A stretch of DNA of 64,000 nucleotides from an uncultured Methanoregulaceae archaeon. Lineage in GTDB: Archaea > Halobacteriota > Methanomicrobia > Methanomicrobiales > Methanospirillaceae. Position 1 is the stretch's first letter; each line of letters opens with the position of its first letter. The notes under the pieces were generated by a model that searched no databases, was not told the origin of the DNA, and saw nothing but the letters and a program-made list of their open reading frames with translations. Shown one piece after another: positions 4,234 to 26,808 of this stretch. The position numbers were made by a program, and so were the translations under genes. The stretch is from positions 1,344,001 to 1,408,000 of the forward strand of contig CAVTTL010000001.1 in assembly GCA_963737635.1 (NCBI GenBank), in the 5' to 3' direction.

Positions 4234-5827
4234 TCACTCATGACGCCCTTGAGCTGGTTCGATCCCGGTAGGTTGGCCCCGGATCGTGCGCTCCTTCATG
4301 ATTGTGTAAACCTCTTCTGCGCAGTCACGGGGCACCTCAACAAAAGAGTACGTATCGAGGATCCTTATTGCCCCGATGGACTTACCTGGGATACCCGTTT
4401 CACCGGCAATTGCACCAACAATGTCCTTTGGGGCGACATTATGGTCGCGGCCGAGACCCAAAAAGAACCTTACCATACCGGGTTCTGCTCCGGTATCGCC
4501 GAAATCAACCGGGGTACTGCGGTCCTTGTGGGAATCCGCACCCTGTTCCATACGCATTTTCAAAAGAGCAGCGGCGATTTCAAGCGTGGAAAGATCGCCT
4601 TCCTGTTCGATCATCCGTGCATACTGCTCAATACCGCCTTTTCTGACAGTCTCGTGGACCTCGTCGATTATCGTCCGGGTCCTTGACTCCATCACATCGT
4701 TTGCGGTGGGGAGCGCTTTTTTTGGGATCTGGACTTTTATGTATTTCTGGATCTCCCGGAAGCTTGGTGTAGTCGCGGGGCGTAACAAACATGATTGCCC
4801 GACCGCTTTTGCCTGCCCGTCCAGTCCTGCCGATACGGTGGACATAGTACTCAACGTCCTGCGGGACGTCGTAGTTAATCACCATATCCACATCCTCGAC
4901 ATCTATCCCGCGCGCGGCAACATCTGTTGCGATGAGGATATCAATACTGCCTTTCCGGAAACCGCTCATGACCCGGTCCCGCTGGGACTGTTTCATATCT
5001 CCATGGAGCTCCTCGGCGCGGTAACCCCGTGCCCGGATGTGGCCGGCAAGGTCTTCTGCGCCCCTCTTAGTATTGCAGAAGATGATAGTAAGCTCCGGGT
5101 CGACGACATCGATTACCCGGCAGAGAGACTCGAGCTTGTCCCGGTCCCTCACTTCGATATAGGATTGTTCGATAGCAGGAACGGTGAGTTCTTGGTACTC
5201 AACCCGGACAAACTCAGGCCGGTTCTGGAATCTTTTTGAGATCTCGATGATGGGCTGGGGCATCGTCGCGGAGAAAAGGAGTGTCTGCCTCTTCTGGGGA
5301 ATGCGTTTGAGGATATACTCAATGTCATCCCGGAACCCCATATCCAGCATCTGGTCAGCCTCGTCGAGCACTACCCTGGAGACATTGTCGAGCGAGAGGG
5401 TCCGGCGCCTGAGATGGTCCATCACGCGCCCAGGCGTCCCGATAACGACGTGGACGCCATGGGCAAGGGCTTTGAGCTGGCGTTCTATGGGCTGACCGCC
5501 ATAGACCGGGAGAACGGAAATTTTCGGAAGATAGGTAAGGAGATGGGAGAACTCCTCGGCAATTTGGATAGCGAGTTCCCGTGTCGGGCACAGGACAATA
5601 GCCTGCACGACCCGTTGCGAAGCGTCGATGTTTTCGATAACAGGAATGCCAAATGCTGATGTCTTCCCGGTACCTGTCTGTGCCTGCGCGGTCACGTCCC
5701 GGCCGGACTGGATAAGGGGAATGGCAAGCGCTTGGATGGGGGTAGGCTCTTCAAAGCCCATGTTTTCGATGGCTTTCTCGATCTCTTTTGAAAGCGAAAG
5801 ATCGGAAAACTGCAATCTTGAATTCAT
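4234..5827 (-). CDS. DEAD-box RNA helicase with DbpA-type C-terminal RNA-binding domain (one frameshift near 4758)
   Basis: Q motif GFEEPTPIQ, AQTGTGKT, PTRELA, DEAD, SAT, HRIGRTGRAG. The C-terminus (REIQKY...KDIVGAIAGETGI) continues in ORF 4234..4854. Confidence 0.9.
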
Positions 5828-6554: not shown

Positions 6555-8000
6555 TCATTCTTTCAAGCATTCAAGTGTGCTTGTATCCTCTTCAATCCTG
6601 CTGTGGTGCCGGCTGTAAAGGACGTAGATCACGAGGCCGACGGCAAGCCAGAGTACGAATCTCAGGTGGGTCACGAGCGGCAGTGCAACGATCAGTAAAC
6701 CGCAGGAGAGGATGCAAAAAACCGGCACAAAGGGGACAAACGGGCACCTGAACGGCCGGGGTAGCGATGGTTGCGTGTGACGGAGGACGATTATGCCAAG
6801 CGAGACAATCATGAATGCAGCAAGCGTTCCGATGTTGACAAGCTCGGCGATGGCAGTTAGCGGGAGAAAGCCGGCGATGAGCGCGATGACGGCACCGACA
6901 AGGATAGTGACCTTGGCCGGGGTCCGGTAAACGGGATGGATCTGCCGGAAGATCCCAGGGAGCAGGCCGTCCCTTGACATGGCAAAGAAGATGCGGGTCT
7001 GCCCGTACAGGAGCACAATGATAACGGAGGTGATCCCGCAGATTGCCCCGACCGAGATCAGCGCGGATCCCCACGAGATCCCAATCTGTTCAAGGGCAAA
7101 AGCAACCGGGGCACTCGTCCCCGCAAAGAGTGTGTAAGGAACGATCCCGGTGAGAACTGCGGAGACGGCAATATAGAGCACGGTCGCGATTGCAAGCGAT
7201 GAAAGAATGCCAAGAGGTACGTCCCTTTGCGGGTTTTTGACTTCTTCTGCTGCAGTCGAGACTGCATCGAAACCGATATAGGCAAAAAAGACGATCGCTG
7301 CCCCAGTAAGGACACCGCTCCAGCCAAACGGCATAAATGGTACCCAGTTAACCGGCCGGATATGTCCGAAGGCGAGGTACAGGAAGAGAAGGATCACGCC
7401 AAGCTTTATCGCGACAATCACCGTGTTGACACGGGCACTCTCCCGTACTCCGATGATGAGCAGAACGCTTACTAAAAGGACGATGATCATTGCCGGGAGA
7501 TTGACCCGTCCCCCGCTTGTACCGGGTGGGTTTATGAATGCAGCGGGTATTATGATCCCTGCACCTGCCATGAGGCTTGTGGCATACCCGGACCCACCGA
7601 CCGCCACAGCTGCAATGGAAACCCCGTATTCGAGGATCAGGTCCCAACCGATGATCCAGGCCCAAATCTCACCGAGCGATGCATAGCTGTACGTATACGC
7701 GCTTCCGGCGACAGGAACCATCGCGGCAAACTCCGCGTACGAGAGGGCGGCAAATGCACAAACGATGCCGGCGATGATAAAAGAGATGACAAGTGCCGGC
7801 CCGGAATAGTTCGCTGCCACCAAACCGGTAATGACAAAGATACCGGTACCGATAATGGCACCGATACCCATGAGCGTCAGATCGAGCGGCGAGAGGACCT
7901 TCTTAAACGCGTGCTCGCCACCGGTACACTCCATGAGCTTGTCGACGGTTTTGGTCCGGAAGGCCCGGGTATTTTTTGGGATGAGTGCCCTGAGGTTCAT
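6555..8000 (-). CDS. APC-family amino acid permease
   Basis: GAIIGTGIF, GSAYTY and FAYIGFD motifs; about 12 TM helices. Confidence 0.92.
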   Translation of the reverse strand: MNLRALIPKNTRAFRTKTVDKLMECTGGEHAFKKVLSPLDLTLMGIGAIIGTGIFVITGLVAANYSGPALVISFIIAGIVCAFAALSYAEFAAMVPVAGSAYTYSYASLGEIWAWIIGWDLILEYGVSIAAVAVGGSGYATSLMAGAGIIIPAAFINPPGTSGGRVNLPAMIIVLLVSVLLIIGVRESARVNTVIVAIKLGVILLFLYLAFGHIRPVNWVPFMPFGWSGVLTGAAIVFFAYIGFDAVSTAAEEVKNPQRDVPLGILSSLAIATVLYIAVSAVLTGIVPYTLFAGTSAPVAFALEQIGISWGSALISVGAICGITSVIIVLLYGQTRIFFAMSRDGLLPGIFRQIHPVYRTPAKVTILVGAVIALIAGFLPLTAIAELVNIGTLAAFMIVSLGIIVLRHTQPSLPRPFRCPFVPFVPVFCILSCGLLIVALPLVTHLRFVLWLAVGLVIYVLYSRHHSRIEEDTSTLECLKE

Positions 8001-8043
8001 GAGTATGCCATCATTATTTTATAGCAGTTGATCAGGAATACTC

Positions 8044-8787
8044 TCACACCTCAATCGTTGTCCCATCCTCAGATATCACTAAGCCCGGGCATTCCTTTTC
8101 AAACTGTCCCTTCAGGGCCCGGCGTTCTTCAAGGGTATGGTACACCTCTGCCCCGAAATGCGTTAGTGCAAGGCGTTTTGCCTTGGCCACTTCGGCGATA
8201 TGGATCGCATCTTCGGGATTCAGGTGCTGCCAGTCCGGGCTTTTCTGCCCGGGCTTTAGCCCGCACTCGGTGATGAGAAGATCGGCGCCGCGGGCAAGAG
8301 TGATTGCGTTGTCGCAGATGCCGGTGTCGGTGCAGTAGGTAACGATCTTACCGTCAATCTCGAACCTGAACCCCCGGCAAGGAACGGGATGGACCAGCGG
8401 CAGGGAAGTGATCTTAAAAGGAAGTTCATGGACGCCGTCGGTGAGTTCCTTCACTGTGACCGCGAAGGGGACTTTGTCAAGCGGCACCGTGTAAGGATCG
8501 CGGACAAGCCCTGCAAGATCTGCCTTTGTGCCGACCTGTCCGCAAATTGTCAGCCCTTTCCTGAACCGGAACTTCACCAGCGTGTGGAGCCCTTCGGTAT
8601 GGTCGAGGTGGAAATGACTGATGAACAGGAAGACCGGCTTATCCTGCGAAATATACCGGTTAGCCTTTGCGATACCGTTTCCAGCATCAAGGATGATATT
8701 GCAATCCTGTGCCGAAATCAGGGCCGAGACCGTGTTCCCGGTGGCGGAGTCGTACCAGCCGTTTGTTCCAAGAAAGGTAACCTTCAT
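8044..8787 (-). CDS. Metallo-beta-lactamase fold hydrolase (RNase Z/BN-like)
   Basis: MKVTFLGT, LDAG, HFHLDH, YCTDT, LITE and LTHF motifs. Confidence 0.85.
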   Translation of the reverse strand: MKVTFLGTNGWYDSATGNTVSALISAQDCNIILDAGNGIAKANRYISQDKPVFLFISHFHLDHTEGLHTLVKFRFRKGLTICGQVGTKADLAGLVRDPYTVPLDKVPFAVTVKELTDGVHELPFKITSLPLVHPVPCRGFRFEIDGKIVTYCTDTGICDNAITLARGADLLITECGLKPGQKSPDWQHLNPEDAIHIAEVAKAKRLALTHFGAEVYHTLEERRALKGQFEKECPGLVISEDGTTIEV

Positions 8788-8958
8788 ACCCGGAACTTGG
8801 CCTTCTTTCATCATCAAGGTGCAGGTACCTGGGAGATTGCTGTGAGGGACTAACCCGTTCTCGCGCTTTTCCTGTGAGATCGATCACAATCTCCATGTAC
8901 CAGGGCGCCGCAATGGTAATCAGATGCAGGTAATTCCCGCACCGGAGCGTGGCCGCCT

Positions 8959-9804
8959 ATGGCACCGGTAAGAGTCGGCGTACATGTCTCAATCGCCGGT
9001 TCGCTCGATCTTGCCGTCGACCGGGCAAAGGATGCCGGCTGCGATGTCTTCCAAATGTTCTCGCGCAACCCCCGGGGATGGGGGTTCAAGCCGCTCGCTG
9101 ACGATGACTGCACCCTTTTCAAGCAGAAAATCAAGACGACCGGTCTTCTCCCGGTCGATCATATGCCCTACCTCCCCAACTTCGCATCCCCGAAGTCCGA
9201 GAATTGGGATAAATCGGTGCAGACCCTTCAGGCTGAACTCGATCGATGCGGGCGCCTCGGCATTCCGTATCTTGTCACCCATCTTGGCCATCACCTCGGG
9301 GACGGGATCGCGGGAGGAAGAGCGCGGGTGATAAAAGCAGTAAACACAGCGCTTGAAACATCAGATAATGACGTAATGCTGTTACTTGAAAATACCGCCG
9401 GCGAGAAGAACAGTGTCGGTAGCAGTTTCGAGCATATTCAGGCGATCATCAACGGGATTGAAAAAAGCGACCGGGTTGGCATATGTTTCGATACCTGCCA
9501 CGCATTCGCCGCTGGGTACGAGCTGCGCACCGAGGATGGTCTTGCTGCCACCCTTGTACAATTGGACAAGACCCTGGGTATCGATCGGCTCAAGGTCATC
9601 CATGTCAATGACACCAAAGGCGATCTTGGGAGCGGCCTTGACCGGCACGAGCATATCGGTATGGGGTTCATCGGCGAAGATGGCTTTCGTCGCATCCTTC
9701 ACAACCCGGTCTTCTCCCGACTCCCGCTCATCTGCGAAACGCCGGTAGATGACCGAAGAGACGACCGGGGCAATATTCAGGCAGTGCGGGACCTTGCCCG
9801 ATAA
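8959..9804 (+). CDS. nfo: Endonuclease IV (AP endonuclease)
   Basis: GVHVSIAG, HMPYLPN, LENTAG, DTCH, DRHEHIG and ETP motifs. Confidence 0.93.
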   Translation: MAPVRVGVHVSIAGSLDLAVDRAKDAGCDVFQMFSRNPRGWGFKPLADDDCTLFKQKIKTTGLLPVDHMPYLPNFASPKSENWDKSVQTLQAELDRCGRLGIPYLVTHLGHHLGDGIAGGRARVIKAVNTALETSDNDVMLLLENTAGEKNSVGSSFEHIQAIINGIEKSDRVGICFDTCHAFAAGYELRTEDGLAATLVQLDKTLGIDRLKVIHVNDTKGDLGSGLDRHEHIGMGFIGEDGFRRILHNPVFSRLPLICETPVDDRRDDRGNIQAVRDLAR

Positions 9805-9810
9805 TTTTTT

Positions 9811-10014
9811 TTAATATCGCCGGATATGAGTGATGCGCTCTTCACTTACCGGTTGTTCGTAGTACTCCGGTGAATAGATTCGCTCTTCCACGACTCCTGC
9901 TGCCTCTTCGAGGTTTTTGGTCATTGCCAGGCATTCAGAACCGTGCGCTCCATTAACTTTAACCTGTATTCTTCCTTCCTTATCGATCACGATCTCCATT
10001 TCCTGCATTTCCAT
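9811..10014 (-). CDS. DUF2997-like small acidic protein
   Basis: IVIDKEGRIQVKVNG.HGSECL.MTKNLEE..G.V.....PEYY pattern; GGAGG SD upstream. Confidence 0.75.
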   Translation of the reverse strand: MEMQEMEIVIDKEGRIQVKVNGAHGSECLAMTKNLEEAAGVVEERIYSPEYYEQPVSEERITHIRRY

Positions 10015-10032
10015 GATTTTTTCCTCCTTTTG

Positions 10033-11652
10033 TCAAGTCAATTGGTGCACCGGTGCATCTTTTCTCATGAGCGTACCGGTCACGAGGTCGCGGGCCGTGA
10101 CGCGCAGTTTTCTTTCCCGGTCGAGCGTGAACGTCAGCTCGAACCGCGGTTCGCCTCTCATCGCCGGCGGATCGGCGATGAGTAATGTAGGCGCCTGTGT
10201 GTTTACCAGGATCGGCCTGCTACCGATGCCGGAATCTCCTTGGGGCCCGACAAGACGAACTCCACCGGCAGTGTCCGAGACGAGCTCAAGTGAAAGCGCA
10301 TGCGCATCCGGCGAGCTCCTGATCTCGTACACAGGGATCCCGAGCCGGGTCTGGCCATCGTAGGCGGCACTGATGGTGACGCGGGCGACTTGGCCTGCGC
10401 TCGGGTAGGGGGCCCCGGAACGCACAAGGAACCGGTACCGGTGCTCCCGGCTTTTTGAGTCCCAGTACCGGAGCGCATAATCGTTTTTGATTTGGGAAGG
10501 TAAAATTGTACGAGGCAGAAAAAGTGCAGTTCCGCGGGCAATGGCATCGAACGGATGATCGGACAGTACAGGTATTCCCGCGTATTTTTTTTTCACGATA
10601 TTCTGGACGGCAGGTATCGCACAACCACGGCCGGTCATCAGGATCGCGACAGGCAGTATCTCTCCGTATCCGTGGGAGGTGGCAGCTGCCCGCGCACAGG
10701 TGATAGTACAATCCAGGATTGACTCAACCCCATGCTCCTTTAGGATCCGGCCAACATCATCCCGGGAAACTCTGACCGGGACCGTTGTTCCGGAAGGCGG
10801 ATCTTCAATCTGGATGATAGCATTGTCTTCAGATGTCAGTTGTCCGTACAGCTCCCCGATCCTGTCATTAATCCCATCACGTAACCTCTTGTTTTTTACT
10901 CCGGTGAACTTTCTGTTGTTCCGGGCGAGTACATCCTGCGCAATCCAGCCATCGACTGCTTTACATCCTGTATTATCGGAAGCAGTACCAATCACCTGCG
11001 GTCCCCTGTCCGGTGCATCATCGAAAAGTACGAAGCGTGCGGTGAAGTCTGTCTCATCCCAGCAGATAATGAGATATACATGCCCTGCTTCCGGAGATAC
11101 CCCGTACCCGGCAACGATGGCAGCCGGTTCGGTGAGCGTGTGCCAGGACCTGATGCCTTGAGCATGAGCAATACCTCCAAGCCATTCGGTGTACCATCCC
11201 GGCGCGTCCGTGGGAATGGCAAAGACCGCCGATGAACACCCGGGATACTCCCGCGTCGCCCGGGCTATAACGGCAGCAAGGAAATCCGCTGCTGCATCGT
11301 GGAATGTGATCCAACGGTCCGCACCGATCGGGATCCGCACCGGGCTTTCCTCCAGCAGGTATCTCCGGATCCATCGCGCGGTTGCGGGATGATCGGCATT
11401 TCCCGCACGCACCACTTCGTCGCCGATGGTCTGGCCCCCATCCTGATCATAATGGATCAATACTGGCACTATGTGGACCGATCTGCCGGTTCCCGCGCCG
11501 GGTACTTCCTGCGACAAGCCGGGAAACTTCTGGGTGTTATACTTGCCATCGTTCCGTATTGAAATGCCGATAACTAGCGAACCGACCCCGAAGTCTATCC
11601 CAAGGCGAACTGCCGGTCTGGGGGATTGTGCGTACCTGCCCACCATGGTCAC
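10033..11652 (-). CDS. Divergent Hsp70/DnaK-like actin-fold protein
   Basis: GIDFG, AVFAIP, EPAA, MTGRGCAIP, AIARG and a C-terminal SBD-like FELTFTLD..RKLRVTARD. Phosphate-2 motif is degenerate. Confidence 0.8.
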   Translation of the reverse strand: MTMVGRYAQSPRPAVRLGIDFGVGSLVIGISIRNDGKYNTQKFPGLSQEVPGAGTGRSVHIVPVLIHYDQDGGQTIGDEVVRAGNADHPATARWIRRYLLEESPVRIPIGADRWITFHDAAADFLAAVIARATREYPGCSSAVFAIPTDAPGWYTEWLGGIAHAQGIRSWHTLTEPAAIVAGYGVSPEAGHVYLIICWDETDFTARFVLFDDAPDRGPQVIGTASDNTGCKAVDGWIAQDVLARNNRKFTGVKNKRLRDGINDRIGELYGQLTSEDNAIIQIEDPPSGTTVPVRVSRDDVGRILKEHGVESILDCTITCARAAATSHGYGEILPVAILMTGRGCAIPAVQNIVKKKYAGIPVLSDHPFDAIARGTALFLPRTILPSQIKNDYALRYWDSKSREHRYRFLVRSGAPYPSAGQVARVTISAAYDGQTRLGIPVYEIRSSPDAHALSLELVSDTAGGVRLVGPQGDSGIGSRPILVNTQAPTLLIADPPAMRGEPRFELTFTLDRERKLRVTARDLVTGTLMRKDAPVHQLT

Positions 11653-14452
11653 CCGGCAATCTGGATATCGTACATTCCGGCGTCCCGGTATGTCGGGCAG
11701 AGTTCAATCTCGTTTTGGAATCTGATGGATAACAGATTACAGAGAAATCTCCACTGGTTCGTCGTGGCATTCGTGCCGGTTGCCTGCTCCTGTTCCCGTG
11801 CGAGAGCAAGGTCAGCAAGGGTAGTCTGTGAAAGGGGCCGCATAAAGGGAACCCGGAAAACATGGATCATCCCATCTATGCCGCTGGTGACAATGCAGTC
11901 TCCACTCTTTATGGCAGCGATTCCGGTGACTGCACCTGCGTGAGCCGGGATGGTCCGGATCAGGAAGTGCCCGTAGAGAGCATAGAACGCAAGGGCGCCA
12001 TGGTTATATCCTGCCGCTATTGCGAGCCCGTCATCAGTGAACGTGAGGGTAGTCGGCCTTCCCGGGATCTGCGGGATCGTCCCGGCGGCGGTTCCTTCAG
12101 GTAGATGGTATAGCCGTATTACGGGATCGGCACCCGCTGCGGCAAGGAAGGTACCATCCCGGGAAATAGCGCAGGCGCTCACTTCATGTTTGGCATCCCG
12201 GAGAACGATACTTTTCTTTTCCCCGTTAAGCTGCCAGATCCTGAGGGTCGTGTCGTTACTCCCGGTCACAAAAAGGCGTCCTTGTGGGTCAATGCAGCAG
12301 CAGGTTATATTGCTCGAATGACCGAGCAGCGTAGCTATCGGTTTCCCACCGGATATACCCCGGATCCTCACTGCTCCGTCCCAGCCGCAGGATATGAATG
12401 TCTCTGTATCCGGTAAGAAAGCAAGGCACCTAGCGGTGGTTGTAAGACTTTCGCATGTGGCAACAAGGCCGCCTTTTGCAAGGTCCCAGATACGGAGACT
12501 TCTGTCTTTCCCGGCACAGGCAAAATATTCCCTGTCAGGGCTGACCGCAAGTGCCCTGACTGACGGCGTGTACACATCAATAGATCTGACAAGGGTGCCG
12601 TCTTCCCGGGAGAAAATGCAAACCCTGCCGTCCGTAGTCCCGGCGACTATTCCGTTGCCAGCCGCGCCGGATGTGAGGGAAAAGGCGGTTACCGCACCGG
12701 CCGGCGCCGGAGTGTACGGAGCAGTTCACCGGAGGGAATGCTTCGGAGGGTGACGGTGCCATCCCCTCCCGCGCTGGCAAGCAGTTTTCCGTCAGGAGAG
12801 ATGACACAGGCAGTAACTGTTTGTCTATATCCCCGGAATTCTTTTATCCGCAGCCTTTCAGGAACGCTGAAAAAGTATATGGTGCCCTCGTTGCAACCGG
12901 CAATCGCCAAAATGCCGTCAGGTGTAAAGGCACAGCATGTCGGAAGGCGGTTGTAAAAGGGGAGTTCTGCTGTCGGGTTCTTCTCTGTCCAGTTCCAGAA
13001 CCGGAGTACGTGATCATTGCTACCGATTGCGGCCCTGCGGTTTTCTGCCGATATCGCGTGGCAGCTGGGATGACCGGAGAACGTGGTGAATGTTCTCACG
13101 GTGATGCCGCTGTTTCCGTCTTTAAGTACGGGGAGGAAACGTTCATACACCACGAAAAGTCTGATCGGCCTGTTCTGTGTACGCGAGAGCCCGGATTGCG
13201 TCACCCGTGCCCGATACGGTCCATGTCTCCACTCCGCTTACAGTGTCTTGGCAGCGGATGGTCCCGTCAGCATAACCACAAGCAATGCTCTTACCCCCAT
13301 GGGCAGGGGAAATGGCAACGACCCGGGAAGGGTGCCCCTGAACTGCCAGCAGCGTTTTACCTGTCCGGCACGCGATGCGGATCGTCTTTCCGCTACTATC
13401 CCCGGCAATAATCTCCTCGCCGTTACCTGACATTGCCACACAGGAAATGGAATGGTCTTTATCAGCGTACGACCAGACTGTGTTTCCTTGGGGAATGCCG
13501 TAGCAGGTGAGCGTGCCGTCGTTCCCTCCGGAGATGATGTAAGAATTGTCAGGTGTGATCGCAAGAAAACCGATGGGTCCGGCGTTTGTGGTGATGGACG
13601 TAATGAGCCGGGCTGATGAGACCTGCCAGATTTCCATCTTCCCGTCGCTGTCAGCCGGCTGCGAGGAGTGTGCCGTCGCGGGAGAATGCAAGATTCAGGC
13701 ACTGGCTATCCTGATTTCCCATTGATACGAGGGGTTTTTCTGACATTGGGGGGATCCACGCTTCCGGCGAGCTCGCGGATCAATTCCTCAAAGACTTGGC
13801 CTTCATCACCACCCGGTCTCCAGCCAGCGATCTTCATGGAGTTCAGTGCCGCGATTGCAAGTGACAGTGGCGCACAAACGACCAGCTGCCACAAGACATC
13901 CCATGCCCGATCTTCGGTCAGGCCTGAGATGACCGCCTCCCACTCGCCATACGACCATCTACGGGCACCACGTGCCGGATCCGTTCCCATCAGTGCACAT
14001 GCAAGAATCCCGCCCATGCCGGTACCGGAGGAATAGTGGAGCGCCCGGGTTTTGATCCTGTCCGGTGCTGCGGCATACCCGCGGGCGAGAAAAGGATGAT
14101 AGGGGTCAGGATCAAGTCGGCACAATGCCTCATGCTGTCCGGTAATATACAAGAAGAGCGCCCGCAATCCCGGCTCCGAGGGAGTATATCCTCTGTCTGT
14201 TGCAATTTTTTCAAGTAACGGATCCTGATGGATCAACACCTCGTTACAGAACACATCGATTGCGTCCGGTGATGAAAGGGCGCCCAAGGTATTGAACGCG
14301 ATCTCCTGTGAATACGCATATGAGTCCGCTCTGGCAAGAGCGGTGAGTTCGCGGACTGCCTCTAGGTTCCCGCTCTTTACCTTATCAATAACGCCGCTCA
14401 ACCGCCGGTACAATAAGGGGCCGATAACCGGAAATGTGGGGGCGATCTTCAT
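11649..14452 (-). CDS. Large protein with N-terminal helical (HEAT-like) region and many WD40 repeats (~930 aa; four frameshifts near 13767, 13651, 13165, 12703)
   Basis: WD40 units (GHSSNITCCCIDPQGRLFVTGSNDTTLRIWQL; LASAGGDGTVTL; ACAGKDRSLRIWDL) span consecutive ORFs and join with single-base corrections. ATGA/GTGA overlaps with both neighbours. Confidence 0.8.
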
Positions 14453-16018
14453 AAAGGTTCACGAGCGCCTGCGTCGAATGTCTCCAGCACAATGGTTTTC
14501 CCATTCCCTGAATGTCGCGCGGCTGCCCGCGATGCAGACTGCGCCCGCCCCTCGGCGAGCCAGGCCCGGAGTACCGCCACCGTCTCCCGCTGCGAGACGG
14601 AAAGAGGCACCTGCGTCTTTATGCAGCAGAGGATATCAGCGGTCGTGACCCGGCGCATGTTTTCGCTGAACGCTTGGTACATTGCGTCGATGATTGTCTG
14701 TTCGATCTCGGCTCCGACATATCCTTCGCTCTCCTGTGCAAGGATATCAAGGTCGAACTCCGTGGGGACACACTTGCGTTTCTTGAGGTGTACAGCGAAG
14801 ATCTCGCGCCGTTCTTCAAGGGTGGGCAGGTCGAGGAAGAAGATCTCGTCGAAACGCCCCTTCCTCAGTAGTTCCGGTGGAAGGGCGGCGATATTGTTCG
14901 CCGTCGCTACCACGAAGCAGGGGGAAGTCTTGTCCTGCATCCATGTGAGGAGATGGGCAAAGACCCGCTGGCTCGTGCCGGCATCCCCGCTGCCAAACGC
15001 GAACGCTTTCTCGATCTCGTCCACCCAGAGAATGCATGGGCTGATCGTCTCGGCAAGCGACAGCGCGCGGCGTGTTCTCTCCTCGGATTCACCGACAAGG
15101 CTGCCAAAGAGCGCCCCCACGTCGAGCCTGAGCAGGGGCAGGTGCCAGAGATCCGCAATCATCTTTGCGGTGAGGCTTTTACCCGTGCCCGGGATGCCGA
15201 TCAGCGCGATGCCTTTGGGTACCGGGAGTCCGAAGTCTCGGGCATCCTGCGTGAACGCCCGCTCGCGCAGGAAAAGCCAGTCCTTGAGAACCGCGAGGCC
15301 TCCGACGTTCTCCAGGGTCTCAGTATAACTGTAAAACTCCAGCGCGTCCGAGGCGCTCAGGATGTCTTTCTTGTCTGCGATGATCGCATCGATGTCCCGG
15401 TCATCCAGGGTACCGTGGGTGACGATCGCCTTTGAGAATGCCCGGCGTGCCTGATTGAGGGTCATGCCAAGGGCTGCCTGAATGATCTTTTCACGACCGG
15501 CAGGCGAAAGCGAACAGGTGATACCGCTTGTGGCGAGCAGGGTGTTGAGGTCTGCAGAGAGCTCGGCCGCTGTGGGTGGAGGGAAATGCACAATTACTGC
15601 CTCGTCCCGGATTTCTTCCGGTACCCGGGTGGTCGGTGTCAGGATCACGATCGTGCGCCGGTTGTACCGGAAAGCCTGGGAGAAATTACGGATGCGTCGT
15701 TTCACCTGGGGGTTGTTCCAGGTACTCGTGGAAATCCTTGAGGATAATAACGGCATCGTCGCCCGTCTTGACGATGTTGTCAAGCGCCGCGAGCGGATCC
15801 CGCGACTGGTTCAGGAAATTCTTATTGCCGGCGATGACAGAAAATCCGTCAACGCTGTCCCACGCAATGCACTGGCGGGGAGGATCCCAGCTCTCGCAGA
15901 CGTTCTGGATTTGTGATACCACTCGTTCTTCTTCCGGGGTGATCACGACGATCAGGGTGACCCGGGCCCGAAGCGAGACGTTGAGCCTGCGGGAGAAATC
16001 GGGTTCGGCAAGATTCAT
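14449..16018 (-). CDS. Ycf46-like AAA+ ATPase (frameshift near 15715)
   Basis: Degenerate N-terminal module (EEER...ILKDFH). Intact Walker A GIPGTGKS, Walker B LWVDEIEK and SRH PPELLRKGRFDEIFF. Confidence 0.88.
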
Positions 16019-16021
16019 AGC

Positions 16022-16420
16022 CTATTTCCACCTCCTGACAACGATGCGCACGGTTCCGTCAATCTCTTCGGTCTCGGAGACAAGGTCAAAGCCATTCGCA
16101 GCAGTCTGTTTGAGTACCATTTTTCTAGCGTATTCTTTCTGGATTGTTTCCGCCTGTTGTTTCAATTCTTCGGCAATCTTTTTCTCGTTTTTTCCTGAAA
16201 TTCCCCACCAGTCCGCGACAAGGTCGTACGTGCCGTCAGGGTTCTTGACAAAGCCAAGCCCGTACGCTTTGTTTGTTTTCGCGGCTATGTCCACGTTGTG
16301 TTGGCCGTGATATCCTTTGATTGTGGTATTGTTTTCAACTGTGTAGCCGAGTTCCTGTAGGCATTGGATCAGTGCCTCGTGATGCCTGAATGTCGTCTTG
16401 ATACGGCTGAAATGCGAGAT
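16022..16420 (-). CDS. DUF1257/Ycf35-like protein, apparent ATC start
   Basis: The frame extends upstream of the listed ORF without stops to (I)SHFSRIKT..L.QCLQELGY. Also GFVKNPDGTYDLVADWW, IQKEYA and GTVRIVVRRW. Confidence 0.8.
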   Translation of the reverse strand: MSHFSRIKTTFRHHEALIQCLQELGYTVENNTTIKGYHGQHNVDIAAKTNKAYGLGFVKNPDGTYDLVADWWGISGKNEKKIAEELKQQAETIQKEYARKMVLKQTAANGFDLVSETEEIDGTVRIVVRRWK

Positions 16421-16424
16421 GGTG

Positions 16425-17062
16425 TCATCCCCCCCGGAAGCAGGAGGCGAGCTGCCGAATCATATGTTTACAGGGAAAACCGGTGATCGTAGCAATACCG
16501 CCGGGTGCAATAGAAAATTCAACCGTTTCACCGTGCGCTTGAGTGCACACATCACCGCGGATGTTTCCGGTCAGCGGAATAATCTGCTGGTTTGACGACC
16601 CGATGTACGGGCTATCGCAGGGCAGGATGTTTACATACGGGCCGGCGATGAGAAGATCCGTGATCTCCAAGAGCCGGTGCCAAGCAGGATCAGTGCTCGA
16701 TGTAAGTTGTTCGTACGTGTATCCCGTATATGTCACGACCGTTCGCCTTGCTCTCCGGATCCGCTCTCCCACATATGCAAGTGCATCTGCCTGTGCGAAG
16801 GGCTCTCCTCCGGAGAACGTGGCGCCATCGATATCTTTGATGCCAAGGATCCGCCGGTGATCTCGTCAGCAGAAACCATATGGACAGGAGAAGACGACCA
16901 GAGTGCCGGGTTGAAACACTCTTTACACCGGATCGGGCACCCCTGCACCCAGATGACGGCCCGGATGCCGGGACCGTTTGCGGTTGACCTCGCAAGAAAA
17001 CCCGCGAGGTTGAGTTCTCTCCTGCGTCGGCATCCGTGATCGTTCATCTGATGCACCATCAT
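16425..17062 (-). CDS. Radical SAM protein, NrdG/organic-radical activase-like (frameshift near 16855)
   Basis: NGPGIRAVIWVQGCPIRCKECFN (CxxxCxxC), TFSGGEPF, YTGYTYE, DLLIAGPY, GSSNQ. Confidence 0.85.
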
Positions 17063-17353
17063 TTTTCCGCCACTACGTCTTGGCTGCTGAAATGATTTCC
17101 GGTTTGTGTGATCGGTGTATCTTATAGTATCACCTAACTATTCCCGGAATGAAAATTACCCTTGGGGACGTGCAAATTAGCATACTTATGAGATACAATC
17201 TGACTATACAGGTTCGATTTTTACCTTTTAATAAGCACTGTTCCGGAGTTTTGGAATTCATAAGGATTTCGATCAGGAAATGCAGGGATGCGCGCAGGAT
17301 CAGATCCCGTTTTCCCGCTCTCTTATAACCATTCGGTAACAATAGATCCGGCA

Positions 17354-18364
17354 GTGAAGGCGACATTTGATGGCACTTCGGTGCTGATCGGTAGAGACGG
17401 GCGGGTGTTGTACGACCAGAGTGGATACGGGCGTCCCGAAGGCGAAGGGGTACGCCTTGCACCGCAGGAAGCATTGTACCTGTTGCACCGCCAGAAGATC
17501 GAAGTCGATGACTATACGTTCGATACCCTTCTTTCCGAATACGCGGACCAGCCCAACTTCCTGCGCAGGTTTCTTGTGTACCGCGATCTACGGGAACGCG
17601 GGTATGTCGTCCAGACCGGTCCCCATGATTACCGGGTATTCCGGCGCGGCGAAAAACCGGGGACCGGGGAATCGCTCTACCTCGTCCGCGTCCTCTCGGA
17701 ACGCGATCCGATCCGGTTTACCAAGTTGATTGAGGAAGTGGTCACGGCAAGAAATATGCGCAAGCAGTATGTCCTCGCGGTTGTCGACGATGAAGAAGAA
17801 CTGACCTATTACGAGATCAAGCTCCAGAAACTGACCGGCTCCGAACTTCCTGCACCTGAAACCGGCACCTGCGATGCAGTGCTGGTAGGCAAGTCTGCGA
17901 TGATCCGGGTACCCCCGCAGTCCGATCTGGAAAAGGCCGGCTTTGGGAAACGGTTAGACGAGGAGCGGCTCATGCTCTCGCCGGTCGAGCTCCTGTACCT
18001 TGCAGGGAGGGGGCTCGTCCGCATTACAAAAGACGGCACTTCTCTGACCGTGGAAGAATTTTTTGCAGCCGCTAAAGAAAGCGACCAGGAACTTGCCGCA
18101 AAAGACAAGGTTTATACCGAGCTGCGCCGGCATGATTTCATTCCCCGGACCGGCTACAAGTTTGGCCATCATTTCCGGGTGTACTGCGGAAAGAATGTGC
18201 ACTCGGATATGCTGGTACATGCAATAGAAAAAGAGGCCGTACTTCCCATGAGTGTCATCTCCCGATCGGTTAGGATGGCGCACAGTGTCAAAAAGAAGAT
18301 GTTGTTTGGCTGTGTACATATCACCGGAATCCAGTTCGTCGAATTCGCGCGGATAAAACTTTGA
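17354..18364 (+). CDS. endA: tRNA-intron endonuclease (euryarchaeal two-repeat type)
   Basis: Two repeats (VYRDLRERGY; VYTELRRHDFIPRTGYKFGHHFRVY) and RMAHSVKKK. Confidence 0.93.
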   Translation: MKATFDGTSVLIGRDGRVLYDQSGYGRPEGEGVRLAPQEALYLLHRQKIEVDDYTFDTLLSEYADQPNFLRRFLVYRDLRERGYVVQTGPHDYRVFRRGEKPGTGESLYLVRVLSERDPIRFTKLIEEVVTARNMRKQYVLAVVDDEEELTYYEIKLQKLTGSELPAPETGTCDAVLVGKSAMIRVPPQSDLEKAGFGKRLDEERLMLSPVELLYLAGRGLVRITKDGTSLTVEEFFAAAKESDQELAAKDKVYTELRRHDFIPRTGYKFGHHFRVYCGKNVHSDMLVHAIEKEAVLPMSVISRSVRMAHSVKKKMLFGCVHITGIQFVEFARIKL

Positions 18365-25944: not shown

Positions 25945-26808
25945 TCAGGTCTTTGACCCTTCCCGCGCCGCGTAAAGATATTCCTGGGCAATTCCGCAGT
26001 ACGCGCCGAAATGTTTCCTGGCAAACGTCCGGATCCCATCGTACTCCCGTCCAGTCAAGGGAGCGTCCGGGTTAAGTGTGGTGAGATAGTGCGCCCCCAT
26101 TATCCGCCGGATCCAGACATCAACCGGGAATGCCTCGAACTTCTGGAACGCAAAGAGCAGGACGCAGTCCGCCGCCTTTGGGCCGATACCGGAGAATTTC
26201 ATGATCTGCCCGGCGCGCCTCCTCGTACGGCAGCGCGGCGACGTCTTTTGCCCAGTTTTTTTGTGCCGCAACGTCACGGGCTGTGTCAAAGACGTATGGC
26301 ATGCGGTACCCGAGCCTGCATTCTGCGAGAGCGGATGATCCCCCGGAGCAGGAGATCCTTGACGGTTCAGGAAATGAAAAAAAAGTCGTATCACCCTCAT
26401 CAATTTCATCACCGAACTTCTCAGCGATCAAGGCGATCCGCCGGCGGATCATAGGTATATTGGAATTGGTGGCGCAGATGTAGGAGCAGAGACATTCCCA
26501 CGCCGGTCTGCCGGTACGAGGCGCAGGCCCCGGCACCGTTCGATAGCCTCATGGATGAATGGATCAGTGTCAATCGATAGAAGTATTGCGCCCAGATCAA
26601 GGTCGAGTGAGAAATAATGCTGGATAAACGTCTTATCGGCGCCCTCAAAGGTCAGGGTCGCACCCTTCTGTTGGCACCGGATTACCCGGTCGCCCACGAC
26701 TCCGCACCAGCTGCCATCCGGCAGACGGTCCCAGCGAAAGGCCTGCCCACACCCGAGCGTCTGGTCAAGTGAGAACGGCTGGTTATGGCGAAGCACGATC
26801 TGTGGCAT
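25945..26808 (-). CDS. ogg: 8-oxoguanine DNA glycosylase (OGG1-like HhH-GPD), three apparent frameshifts
   Basis: TLGCGQAFRW, GLRL.RQ..WECL.SYICATN, LGYR, GIGPKAADC, FPVDVW and AQEYLY spread over three frames. Confidence 0.85.

Follow-up and report, generated by a model that had tools for sequence, protein, structure and literature searches.

What are six closely spaced, co-oriented genes, encoding a radical S-adenosylmethionine (SAM) enzyme, two small proteins of the DUF1257 and DUF2997 families, a Ycf46-like AAA+ ATPase, a helical/WD40 repeat protein, and an Hsp70-like protein, doing between the housekeeping genes nfo and endA of a methanogen? These genes occupy positions 9811–17062 of the window analyzed here, a stretch of 64,000 nucleotides from an uncultured Methanoregulaceae archaeon (assembly GCA_963737635.1, contig CAVTTL010000001.1), and coordinates below are those of the window unless another locus is named. 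Our favored reading, held with belief and doubt about evenly balanced, is that the operon encodes one multi-protein, adenosine triphosphate (ATP)-driven machine that remodels proteins in two layers, is directed by a tag at the C-terminus of the WD40 protein, and serves either stress proteostasis or conflict with mobile elements.

Between nfo and endA, 11 open reading frame (ORF) pieces on the minus strand represent six genes, which we assigned from Pfam matches, motifs, and alignment to orthologues. The first gene (16425–17062) encodes an NrdG-like radical SAM enzyme of 212 residues after correction of an indel at 16852, and its pieces match Fer4_12 with E-values of 9.2e-11 and 1e-06. It is followed by a DUF1257 (Ycf35-type) gene (16022–16420; 132 residues, E = 1.1e-15) and by the gene for the Ycf46-like classical AAA+ ATPase (14449–16018; 522 residues after correction of an indel at 15721), which consists of an N-domain of ~235 residues and one AAA module (AAA, 3e-29; AAA_lid_3, 1.3e-09). 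The fourth gene (11649–14452) encodes a protein of 933 residues after correction of indels at 13769, 13652, 13160, and 12702, with a helical (HEAT-like) N-domain and WD40 repeats that are matched on three ORF pieces (1e-12, 1.5e-16, and 1.6e-37). The fifth (10033–11652) encodes the 539-residue Hsp70-like protein, for which Pfam gives a sub-threshold match of MreB/Hsp70 type (actin/Hsp70 fold), and the last (9811–10014) a DUF2997 protein of 67 residues (4.5e-15). No Pfam match was obtained for a 248-residue helical piece or for the 110-residue N-terminal piece of the AAA protein. The radical SAM stop codon (TGA, 16425–16427) lies 4 nucleotides ahead of the DUF1257 start at 16420, and 3 nucleotides separate the DUF1257 stop from the AAA ATG at 16018. 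The AAA and WD40 genes overlap by ATGA (14449–14452) and the WD40 and Hsp70-like genes by GTGA (11649–11652), while an 18-nucleotide spacer with GGAGG precedes DUF2997. Both the six-gene arrangement between nfo and endA and its coupling-type junctions are thus as a first-pass annotation of this DNA had described them. An A+T-rich intergenic region shared with the divergent endA (17063–17287) presumably holds the operon promoter.

The six-gene arrangement recurs among relatives. With a profile of the Hsp70-like protein, 56 of the genus's 108 species genomes were positive, including 28 of the 50 of high quality. In 32 of 36 named loci (from Methanoregula, Methanoregulaceae, and Methanomicrobiales metagenome-assembled genomes, MAGs), the six genes are ordered as in the window, so the arrangement is not due to chance, and the genes form one conserved unit; three of the remaining loci are cut by contig ends, and one (L054) carries an internal deletion. 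In that Methanoregula MAG, the whole WD40 gene and approximately the first 360 residues of the Hsp70-like protein are missing (around 9962–10522 of the locus), and the other four genes are kept. Beyond the genus, the same order is found in four other genera of the family, in three of them between endA and nfo. DUF2997 occurs in 14 of 301 sampled genomes of the phylum, and eight of these 14 are among the 17 genomes from the same family, spread over five genera. In four congeners that lack the cluster (98–99% complete), nfo directly adjoins endA (four of four checked), so that nfo (8959–9804, plus strand; apurinic/apyrimidinic endonuclease) and endA (17288–18364, plus strand; transfer RNA-splicing endonuclease) mark the insertion site.

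Across 19 complete loci, the cluster genes have diverged in step with the flanks (Spearman 0.40–0.70, compared to 0.46 for flank against flank), which points to an old chromosomal resident that was often lost rather than to a recent import, and the G+C content of the operon (0.50–0.60) resembles that of its surroundings and gives no sign of recent import either. Within the methanogen family, the cluster therefore seems to have been inherited vertically, with losses, and not to be mobile. The genes evolve at very different rates in these loci: median pairwise identity is 82.7% for AAA, the slowest, 76–79% for the flanks, 42.8% for the Hsp70-like protein, and 39.8% for the WD40 protein, the last two being the fastest. 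Divergence of the Hsp70-like protein is correlated with that of the WD40 protein (Spearman 0.89).

Loci outside the methanogens were gathered with an alignment of the Hsp70-like protein, a single protein query having given no confirmed locus. Among 1.84 billion representatives, HMMER recovers 266 clusters of the family at E≤1e-30, down to 22–30% full-length identity. Alignment of 33 diverse members led to 80 metagenome loci, the ORFs of which were scanned with profiles of the methanogen orthologues. In 20 of these loci, an Hsp70-like ORF matches the methanogen profile at E≤1e-90, and it is accompanied by AAA in 13 (E of ~1e-220), DUF1257 in 14, DUF2997 in 11, the NrdG-like radical SAM enzyme in 11, and WD40 in 14, all of these counts being lower bounds. 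Seven loci hold all six genes, two in the methanogen order and five in others, such as AAA-Hsp70-DUF1257-DUF2997-rSAM-WD40 in L075 and rSAM-WD40-AAA-Hsp70-DUF1257-DUF2997 in L061 (rSAM, radical SAM). Of those among the 20 that lack partners, six are contigs shorter than 5 kilobases (kb). The 60 loci left out of the count comprise three truncated close relatives, 22 ordinary Hsp70-like loci, and 35 more distant ones (mostly E of 1e-57 to 1e-75); 12 of the latter have DUF2997, DUF1257, or AAA nearby, and none has a radical SAM gene detectable with the methanogen profile. The 20 counted loci vary in G+C content between 0.47 and 0.72. We call these contigs bacterial on the basis of named plasmids, GrpE, conjugation and defense neighbors, and this spread of G+C.

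Part of the set is also found on named plasmids. In Paenibacillus polymyxa pPPM1a, AAA, DUF1257, DUF2997, and a gene annotated "4Fe-4S single cluster domain" stand in a row, Paenarthrobacter pYJN5-1 has a near-identical arrangement, and plasmids of Bacillus and Rhizobium also bear the four-gene core. The radical SAM gene adjoins AAA on a plasmid of Treponema succinifaciens (pTRESU01, L146). There, the pair (6938–9093) lies within contractile-injection-system or phage-tail genes (VgrG/Pvc8 family, baseplate protein V), and DUF1257 and DUF2997 were not detected with the methanogen profiles. No radical SAM gene is present on Pseudanabaena galeata pPg_01 (L144), where DUF1257, DUF2997, and AAA are accompanied by WD40 paralogues, GrpE, and an Hsp70 family protein. 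An "ATP-binding protein" and a small protein are situated in or beside DUF1257-DUF2997 on pPg_01 (14010–15583) and on a Geminocystis plasmid (L161, 5112–7042), where the small protein is annotated as RloB family; toxin-antitoxin genes interrupt both cyanobacterial clusters. Relatives of the AAA protein are found in 79 plasmid records at E≤1e-60 and in 57 phage records at E≤1e-50, and the window protein is 36–37% identical to AAA genes on Nostoc plasmids.

Taken together, the gene content of these loci indicates that the cluster is a composite, in which a four-gene core (AAA+, DUF1257, DUF2997, and radical SAM) is joined by an accessory pair (the helical/WD40 protein and the lid-less Hsp70-like protein). 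The expectation that the six genes co-occur elsewhere holds, as the same functions on metagenome contigs in other orders and in fixed order in four other genera of the family. The view that the set is peculiar to a methanogen and the radical SAM enzyme unusual within it does not, since AAA-DUF1257-DUF2997-radical SAM recurs on plasmids. Nor is the WD40/Hsp70 pair a methanogen peculiarity, as it joins the core on contigs of 47–72% G+C and also on a cyanobacterial plasmid whose cluster lacks the radical SAM gene.

The operon as assembled contains broken reading frames, which raises the question of whether it is functional at all. Aligned to intact congener orthologues, the frames are interrupted six times, once in the radical SAM gene, once in the AAA gene, and four times in the helical/WD40 gene. 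We compared the window with contigs from four sequencing runs of four studies (X1–X4, of which X1 may be the source sample). These contigs carry an additional G behind 12702 and behind 16852 and one base less at 13160, 13652, 13769, and 15721, each of the six indels being supported by two to four of the four runs. They are otherwise identical to the window, save for 12 substitutions at 15355–15433 in one much deeper X2 contig, which is taken to be a conserved AAA segment of a relative. The corrected frames encode 212, 522, 933, 539, and 67 residues with no in-frame stops, compared to 213, 519, ~935, ~540, and 67 residues in intact orthologues. Because the six indels in the contigs of four runs restore full-length frames, the frameshifts, which the first-pass annotation had marked for repair, are errors of the assembly consensus and not biological.

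Decay of the array into pseudogenes, three of the six genes being truly frameshifted, would account for the concentration of six breaks in 7.25 kb, when the remaining 56.7 kb of the window shows just one or two split genes. We regard this explanation as extremely unlikely, given that four runs' contigs carry the same DNA with six frame-restoring differences and no in-frame stops, that the NrdD, NrdG2, and DeaD genes of the same assembly are split likewise, and that the assembly, in four contigs, reaches only 90% marker completeness. In the window, the DeaD-type helicase gene (4234–5827, minus strand) is split into overlapping ORFs, one with DEAD and Helicase_C and the next with DeaD_dimer and DbpA, and an ORF with OGG_N alone is followed by a 155-residue ORF without a match (25945–26808, minus strand); both are probably further single-base assembly errors. 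Outside the window, NrdD (C1:99135–100849) and NrdG2 (C1:2321631–2322186) of the source genome are each split in two adjacent frames, consistent with indel errors assembly-wide. All six errors in the operon lie in or beside short G+C-rich palindromes (CCGG or GCCGGC at four sites, CCAGG at one, and GATC at one), a context that would fit modification-related miscalls; the density of CCGG in the operon is only 1.5 times that of the rest of the window, which leaves the clustering of six errors in 7.25 kb unexplained. The six frameshifts should be annotated as consensus errors, and a pseudogene label is unwarranted. The DUF1257 gene is unbroken and begins with ATC (16418–16420). At the aligned position, 20 relatives' loci have ATG in 17, ATT in two, and CTG in one, the non-ATG starts belonging to three close relatives (L021, L024, and L048). 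This sub-clade seems to tolerate near-cognate starts on a translationally coupled DUF1257 gene, and such a start perhaps sets a low stoichiometry.

The accessory pair provides the most distinctive features of the operon. The profile of the Hsp70-like family aligns to residues 2–495 of Escherichia coli DnaK (E = 2.5e-55), and the protein ends ~25 residues past the end of this alignment, indicating that it is lid-less. Bacterial-type members match PF00012 at 1e-33 to 2e-37, and the window protein alone falls below the Pfam cut-off. In 29 methanogen proteins, the equivalent of Lys70 is Arg in 82%, the DFGGGT motif retains its Asp in 31% and has lost its glycines, and another residue takes the place of the second adenosine-motif Gly; among metagenome homologues, 15 of them close and 34 distant, the same ATP-site columns are 93–100% kept. 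Of the 98 invariant columns in the methanogen proteins, 60 fall within the last 152 of 539 residues, which correspond to the peptide-binding beta domain, so that this substrate-binding part is conserved while the nucleotide-site motifs are degenerate. The Hsp70-like gene follows a GrpE-like gene in two metagenome loci and on pPg_01, an unassigned ORF fills the same slot in a third locus, and the methanogen operon leaves no space for GrpE. The methanogen Hsp70-like protein has thus lost both its ATP-site motifs and its GrpE, a feature newly recognized here. Seven representatives (P0116, P0119, P0120, P0125, P0131, P0141, and P0142) are 880–946 residues long with the Hsp70-like part N-terminal, which implies a C-terminal fusion of ~400 residues.

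The WD40 protein ends in a conserved tail, FQNEIELCPTYRDAGMYDIQIAG (11652–11720, minus strand), which motif comparison leads us to read as a docking tag. The tail is short and hairpin-like, with the consensus YDIQIVG in methanogens and FDIEIEG in metagenome and plasmid relatives. The pattern [FYW][DE][IVL][EQDL][IVLF] occurs in the last nine residues of 25 of 26 methanogen WD40 proteins and of 15 of 23 metagenome WD40 ORFs of at least 300 residues, compared to one of 1538 control ORFs (other ORFs of at least 100 residues from the same loci). Of the eight metagenome ORFs that miss it, those of L059, L062, and L071 have the tag a few residues further in, that of L112 has a looser variant further in, and the other four belong to loci without the AAA-DUF1257-radical SAM core. 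Three WD40 paralogues on pPg_01 share 36–49% identity overall and have near-identical 24-residue tails, one pair being 83% identical over a 206-residue N-terminal stretch, and tagged tandem paralogues are also present in L072 (four) and L056 (three). The tag, as delineated by this comparison, appears to be new. N-terminal parts of three metagenome WD40 relatives match HEAT_2, in line with the HEAT-like N-domain.

Within the core, the AAA module scores 102.6 bits against PF00004 (cut-off 21.2) and 37.8 bits against AAA_lid_3 (cut-off 27.2), placing it in the classical clade, and among solved structures the VAT/p97/Cdc48 unfoldases are nearest to it (E = 5.7e-50). The columns G274–S281 (GIxGTGKS), D333–E334, and R385, G387, R388, F389, and D390, which we take to be Walker A, Walker B, and the arginine-finger region, are invariant across 18 sequences; because these GxxGxGKS, DE, and R-x-G-R-F-D columns are preserved, the motor is predicted to be competent. 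The Ycf46 label is our assumption, drawn from the shared DUF1257 and DUF2997 partners. For the strongly conserved N-domain (~235 residues), a profile search of the PDB found no relative, and the idea that it is a degenerate AAA module was rejected (hhalign probability of 0.8% for the N-half against the C-half). C-termini of Hsp70-linked AAA proteins (L058, L061, L063, L071, L075, and L144) are of the FVPLQLD[IL] type, with I-A-L-E-T-F-D in methanogens, and core-only plasmid and phage AAA proteins (L145, L147, and L160) lack such a tail, as judged by eye. Also by eye, some DUF2997 and AAA C-termini resemble the WD40 tag in some bacterial loci, a resemblance from which we make no claim.

The two small proteins are well-supported family members of obscure fold. 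DUF1257 scores 58.1 bits in the window and 80.2 bits in a full-length orthologue (PF06868, cut-off 22.2) and has an invariant N-terminal M-S-H. Its structural model (predicted local distance difference test score, pLDDT, 81.8) gives a best Foldseek E-value of 0.16 against the PDB and a best Z of 6.9 among generic alpha+beta folds in a wide VIA-align comparison, so no fold was assigned. DUF2997 scores 55.7 bits (PF11211, cut-off 24.1), is modeled as a beta-hairpin and a helix (pLDDT 78.1), and carries one invariant Cys, located where the predicted helix begins. Profile searches of PDB sequences gave nothing below E = 0.008 for DUF1257 or below E = 0.3 for DUF2997. Complex prediction for the AAA N-domain (residues 1–232) with DUF1257 and DUF2997 yielded scores of 0.36, 0.31, and 0.00 (mark 0.32), which is evidence neither way.

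The corrected radical SAM frame contains the CX3CX2C motif as CPIRCKEC together with FSGGEP, and an intact orthologue matches Fer4_12 (1e-30) and Radical_SAM (8.8e-07). Since both CX3CX2C and GGEP are present, the enzyme is predicted to be competent. Its best NCBIfam match is NrdG (TIGR02491), with 99 bits where the cut-off is 126.1, and all 18 listed models fall below their cut-offs. NrdD lies ~1.25 megabases away on the same contig, the NrdG2 of the source genome is likewise elsewhere, split, and below cut-off, and canonical NrdG2 is found in two relatives without the operon and in one with it. A role as the housekeeping NrdG was accordingly rejected. With NrdD and NrdG2 encoded elsewhere, and NrdG2 present in operon-free relatives too, the operon enzyme is an extra, orphan activase-like paralogue.

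How might these proteins work together? In the two-layer remodeling machine that we favor, the first layer would be the old four-gene core, with the Ycf46-like AAA+ ring as its motor and DUF1257 and DUF2997 as obligate cofactors or adaptors of that ring, while the NrdG-like enzyme, through a 5'-deoxyadenosyl radical, would modify or switch one partner or client. The second layer would be a targeting pair, in which the HEAT-like/WD40 protein acts as an exchangeable, fast-evolving receptor that binds the target. Its tail would plug into the machine, most likely held by the peptide-binding beta domain of the Hsp70-like protein, which would thereby bridge the WD40 receptor to the AAA+ motor. Having lost its ATP-site motifs and GrpE and kept its peptide-binding domain, the methanogen Hsp70-like protein would serve as an ATP-independent scaffold. 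The gene set, its intactness, its conservation, the motif states, the tag, and the modular distribution on which this proposal builds are direct observations. The first-pass annotation had already suggested that the WD40 and Hsp70-like proteins recognize a client, that the AAA+ protein remodels it with two small partners, and that the radical SAM enzyme modifies a component; the tag and the divergence pattern fit this suggestion, with the contacts themselves presumed. A more specific version, which we consider doubtful, is a prokaryotic receptor-tag-motor system in which exchangeable HEAT/WD40 receptors, sharing one short beta-hairpin tag at their ends, dock on the lid-less Hsp70 as adaptor and pass selected targets on to the Ycf46-type ring, with DUF1257 and DUF2997 switched by a radical (protein-centered, for example). 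Such a system would perform targeted unfolding of invaders or damaged proteins, analogous to Cdc48 with its adaptors yet built from unrelated parts and gated by radical SAM chemistry, and would supply the first mechanism for the long-orphaned plastid and cyanobacterial Ycf46 and Ycf35.

Several points weigh against the two-layer machine. Which proteins touch, in which direction a client is handed over, what the radical SAM enzyme acts on, and what the machine targets are all parts that we infer, and the Hsp70-like beta domain is just one of several possible docking sites for the tail. The cluster encodes no glycyl-radical-type partner or other evident radical SAM substrate. In processive unfoldases, pore loop 1 has an aromatic-hydrophobic-Gly motif; that of the operon AAA protein reads G-S-L-V-G-E-S-E in methanogen and close metagenome sequences and is without an aromatic residue, so the motor may remodel rather than thread its substrate. 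Two metagenome loci are real exceptions to co-occurrence: L073, in which the methanogen profiles detect no partner of the Hsp70-like gene on 21.6 kb, and L069, which has WD40 and the Hsp70-like gene only. Because the profiles derive from the methanogen clade, they may miss divergent partners in the metagenome loci, and within-genus counts overstate independent support, as kin are not independent.

Comparison with known systems places the operon near several of them. In cyanobacteria and red-lineage plastids, Ycf46, Ycf35, and DUF2997 are linked as neighbors, the same three families as here, and we also found DUF2997 in the control genome of Synechococcus elongatus; relative to this trio, the operon is archaeal and additionally encodes a radical SAM enzyme, a WD40 protein with a tag, and an Hsp70 without a lid. 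One report describes a duf2997-ycf35-fed7 cluster in cyanobacteria (PMC4284462), and another links the reported roles to stress and gives no known mechanism (PMC13683863). As in DnaK-GrpE with ClpB/Hsp104, an Hsp70 member (with GrpE in bacterial relatives) is encoded with an AAA+ motor, which suggests Hsp70-guided delivery to the motor. The operon differs in having no J-domain protein and a lid-less Hsp70 that in methanogens lacks ATP-site motifs and GrpE; neither DnaJ nor ClpB families match any operon piece in Pfam or NCBIfam, and its AAA protein is a single-module member of the classical clade, in contrast to the two-ring ClpB with its M-domain. Cdc48/p97/VAT, the closest solved AAA relatives, work with exchangeable substrate-recruiting cofactors, and the operon comparably has dedicated small partners and repeat-protein "receptors" with a common docking tag; its AAA protein, however, has one module, its own ~235-residue N-domain, and no pore-loop aromatic, and no ubiquitin-like system is present. 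The radical SAM enzyme shares the small architecture of the NrdG and PflA activases, NrdG being its best NCBIfam match, yet it falls below every equivalog cut-off and has no linked glycyl-radical enzyme, and the genome encodes NrdG2 and NrdD separately.

The most serious rival to the remodeling machine is anti-phage or anti-plasmid defense, in which the fast-evolving WD40 and Hsp70-like proteins would sense an invader and the AAA+ protein, with the radical SAM enzyme, would disable the invader or the cell. We consider this possible, if on the unlikely side. It would account for the patchy presence of the cluster (56 of 108 species) and its clean empty sites, for the plasmid and phage records of the core AAA protein, and for the sensor-like divergence of the accessory pair. 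Neighbors of some relatives point the same way: L061 lies beside a TrwB-type coupling protein, a relaxase, a PD-(D/E)XK nuclease, and a methylase, L109 has OLD-TOPRIM/AAA_21 and UvrD, L072 has AAA_21 and HNH, the Geminocystis plasmid carries RloB, zeta toxin, HNH, and DUF4007, and pPg_01 has toxin-antitoxin pairs, as well as three to four tandem WD40 paralogues comparable to those of L072 and L056. The methanogen cluster, however, sits at a fixed housekeeping site where its divergence tracks the flanks, and it contains no nuclease, protease, pore-forming, or nicotinamide adenine dinucleotide-degrading effector. The gene set matches no system of PADLOC-DB v2, seven of the 11 pieces having no match and the WD40 pieces a weak HEAT-ARM model. 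IetAS is the sole known defense system to be matched, through IetA models on the AAA module (4e-24), but the similarity is confined to the generic AAA domain, NCBIfam IteA scores 80.5 bits against a cut-off of 510, and the operon has no IetS-type protease.

A weaker rival, which we judge improbable, is a stress system in which the AAA+ protein, the Hsp70-like protein, and the cysteine-bearing DUF2997 protein service oxygen-damaged iron-sulfur or radical enzymes, with the NrdG-like protein as the serviced enzyme or as the re-activator of an unlinked glycyl-radical enzyme. Radical SAM enzymes are oxygen-sensitive iron-sulfur enzymes, and the host is a strict anaerobe. The invariant Cys at the helix N-terminus of DUF2997 would suit such a role, as would the adjacency of cyanobacterial DUF2997 and ycf35 to fed7, a ferredoxin gene (PMC4284462), and the reported induction of the cyanobacterial ycf46 operon by severe oxidative stress (PMC13683863). 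It accords poorly with the location of the genome's own NrdD and NrdG2 away from the cluster, to which no glycyl-radical enzyme is linked, and with the presence of the four-gene core on plasmids of aerobes (Paenarthrobacter, Bacillus, and Rhizobium), and it leaves the tagged, fast-evolving tandem WD40 paralogues unexplained.

The first-pass annotation knew of no characterized version in a methanogen, or of one with a radical SAM enzyme, a WD40 scaffold, and an Hsp70-fold protein, and this still holds: no PADLOC system matches it, and we found no description of the gene set in the searchable literature, outside of which are subscription-only papers and bioRxiv supplements. Radical SAM is not mentioned there together with Ycf46 or Ycf35. 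In the accessible part of an eLife 2020 survey of nucleoside triphosphate-dependent conflict systems (PMC7159879), Hsp70 appears only with GTPase systems and Ycf46 is unmentioned. What is added here is an archaeal, chromosomal, and vertically inherited form that unites both modules, the motif evidence for a pseudo-ATPase Hsp70, and the WD40 tag.

The operon thereby places Ycf46 and Ycf35, conserved ORFs that have been without a mechanism for decades, in a larger and evidently co-functioning set, which occurs in archaea, on bacterial plasmids, and on metagenome contigs that differ widely in G+C content. It also offers testable handles in the tag of 23 residues, an Hsp70 variant that is naturally ATP-dead and has ATP-competent relatives, and an activase-like orphan enzyme with no glycyl-radical partner. 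If the set proves to be a defense or quality-control system, it would represent a new coupling of radical chemistry to protein unfolding.

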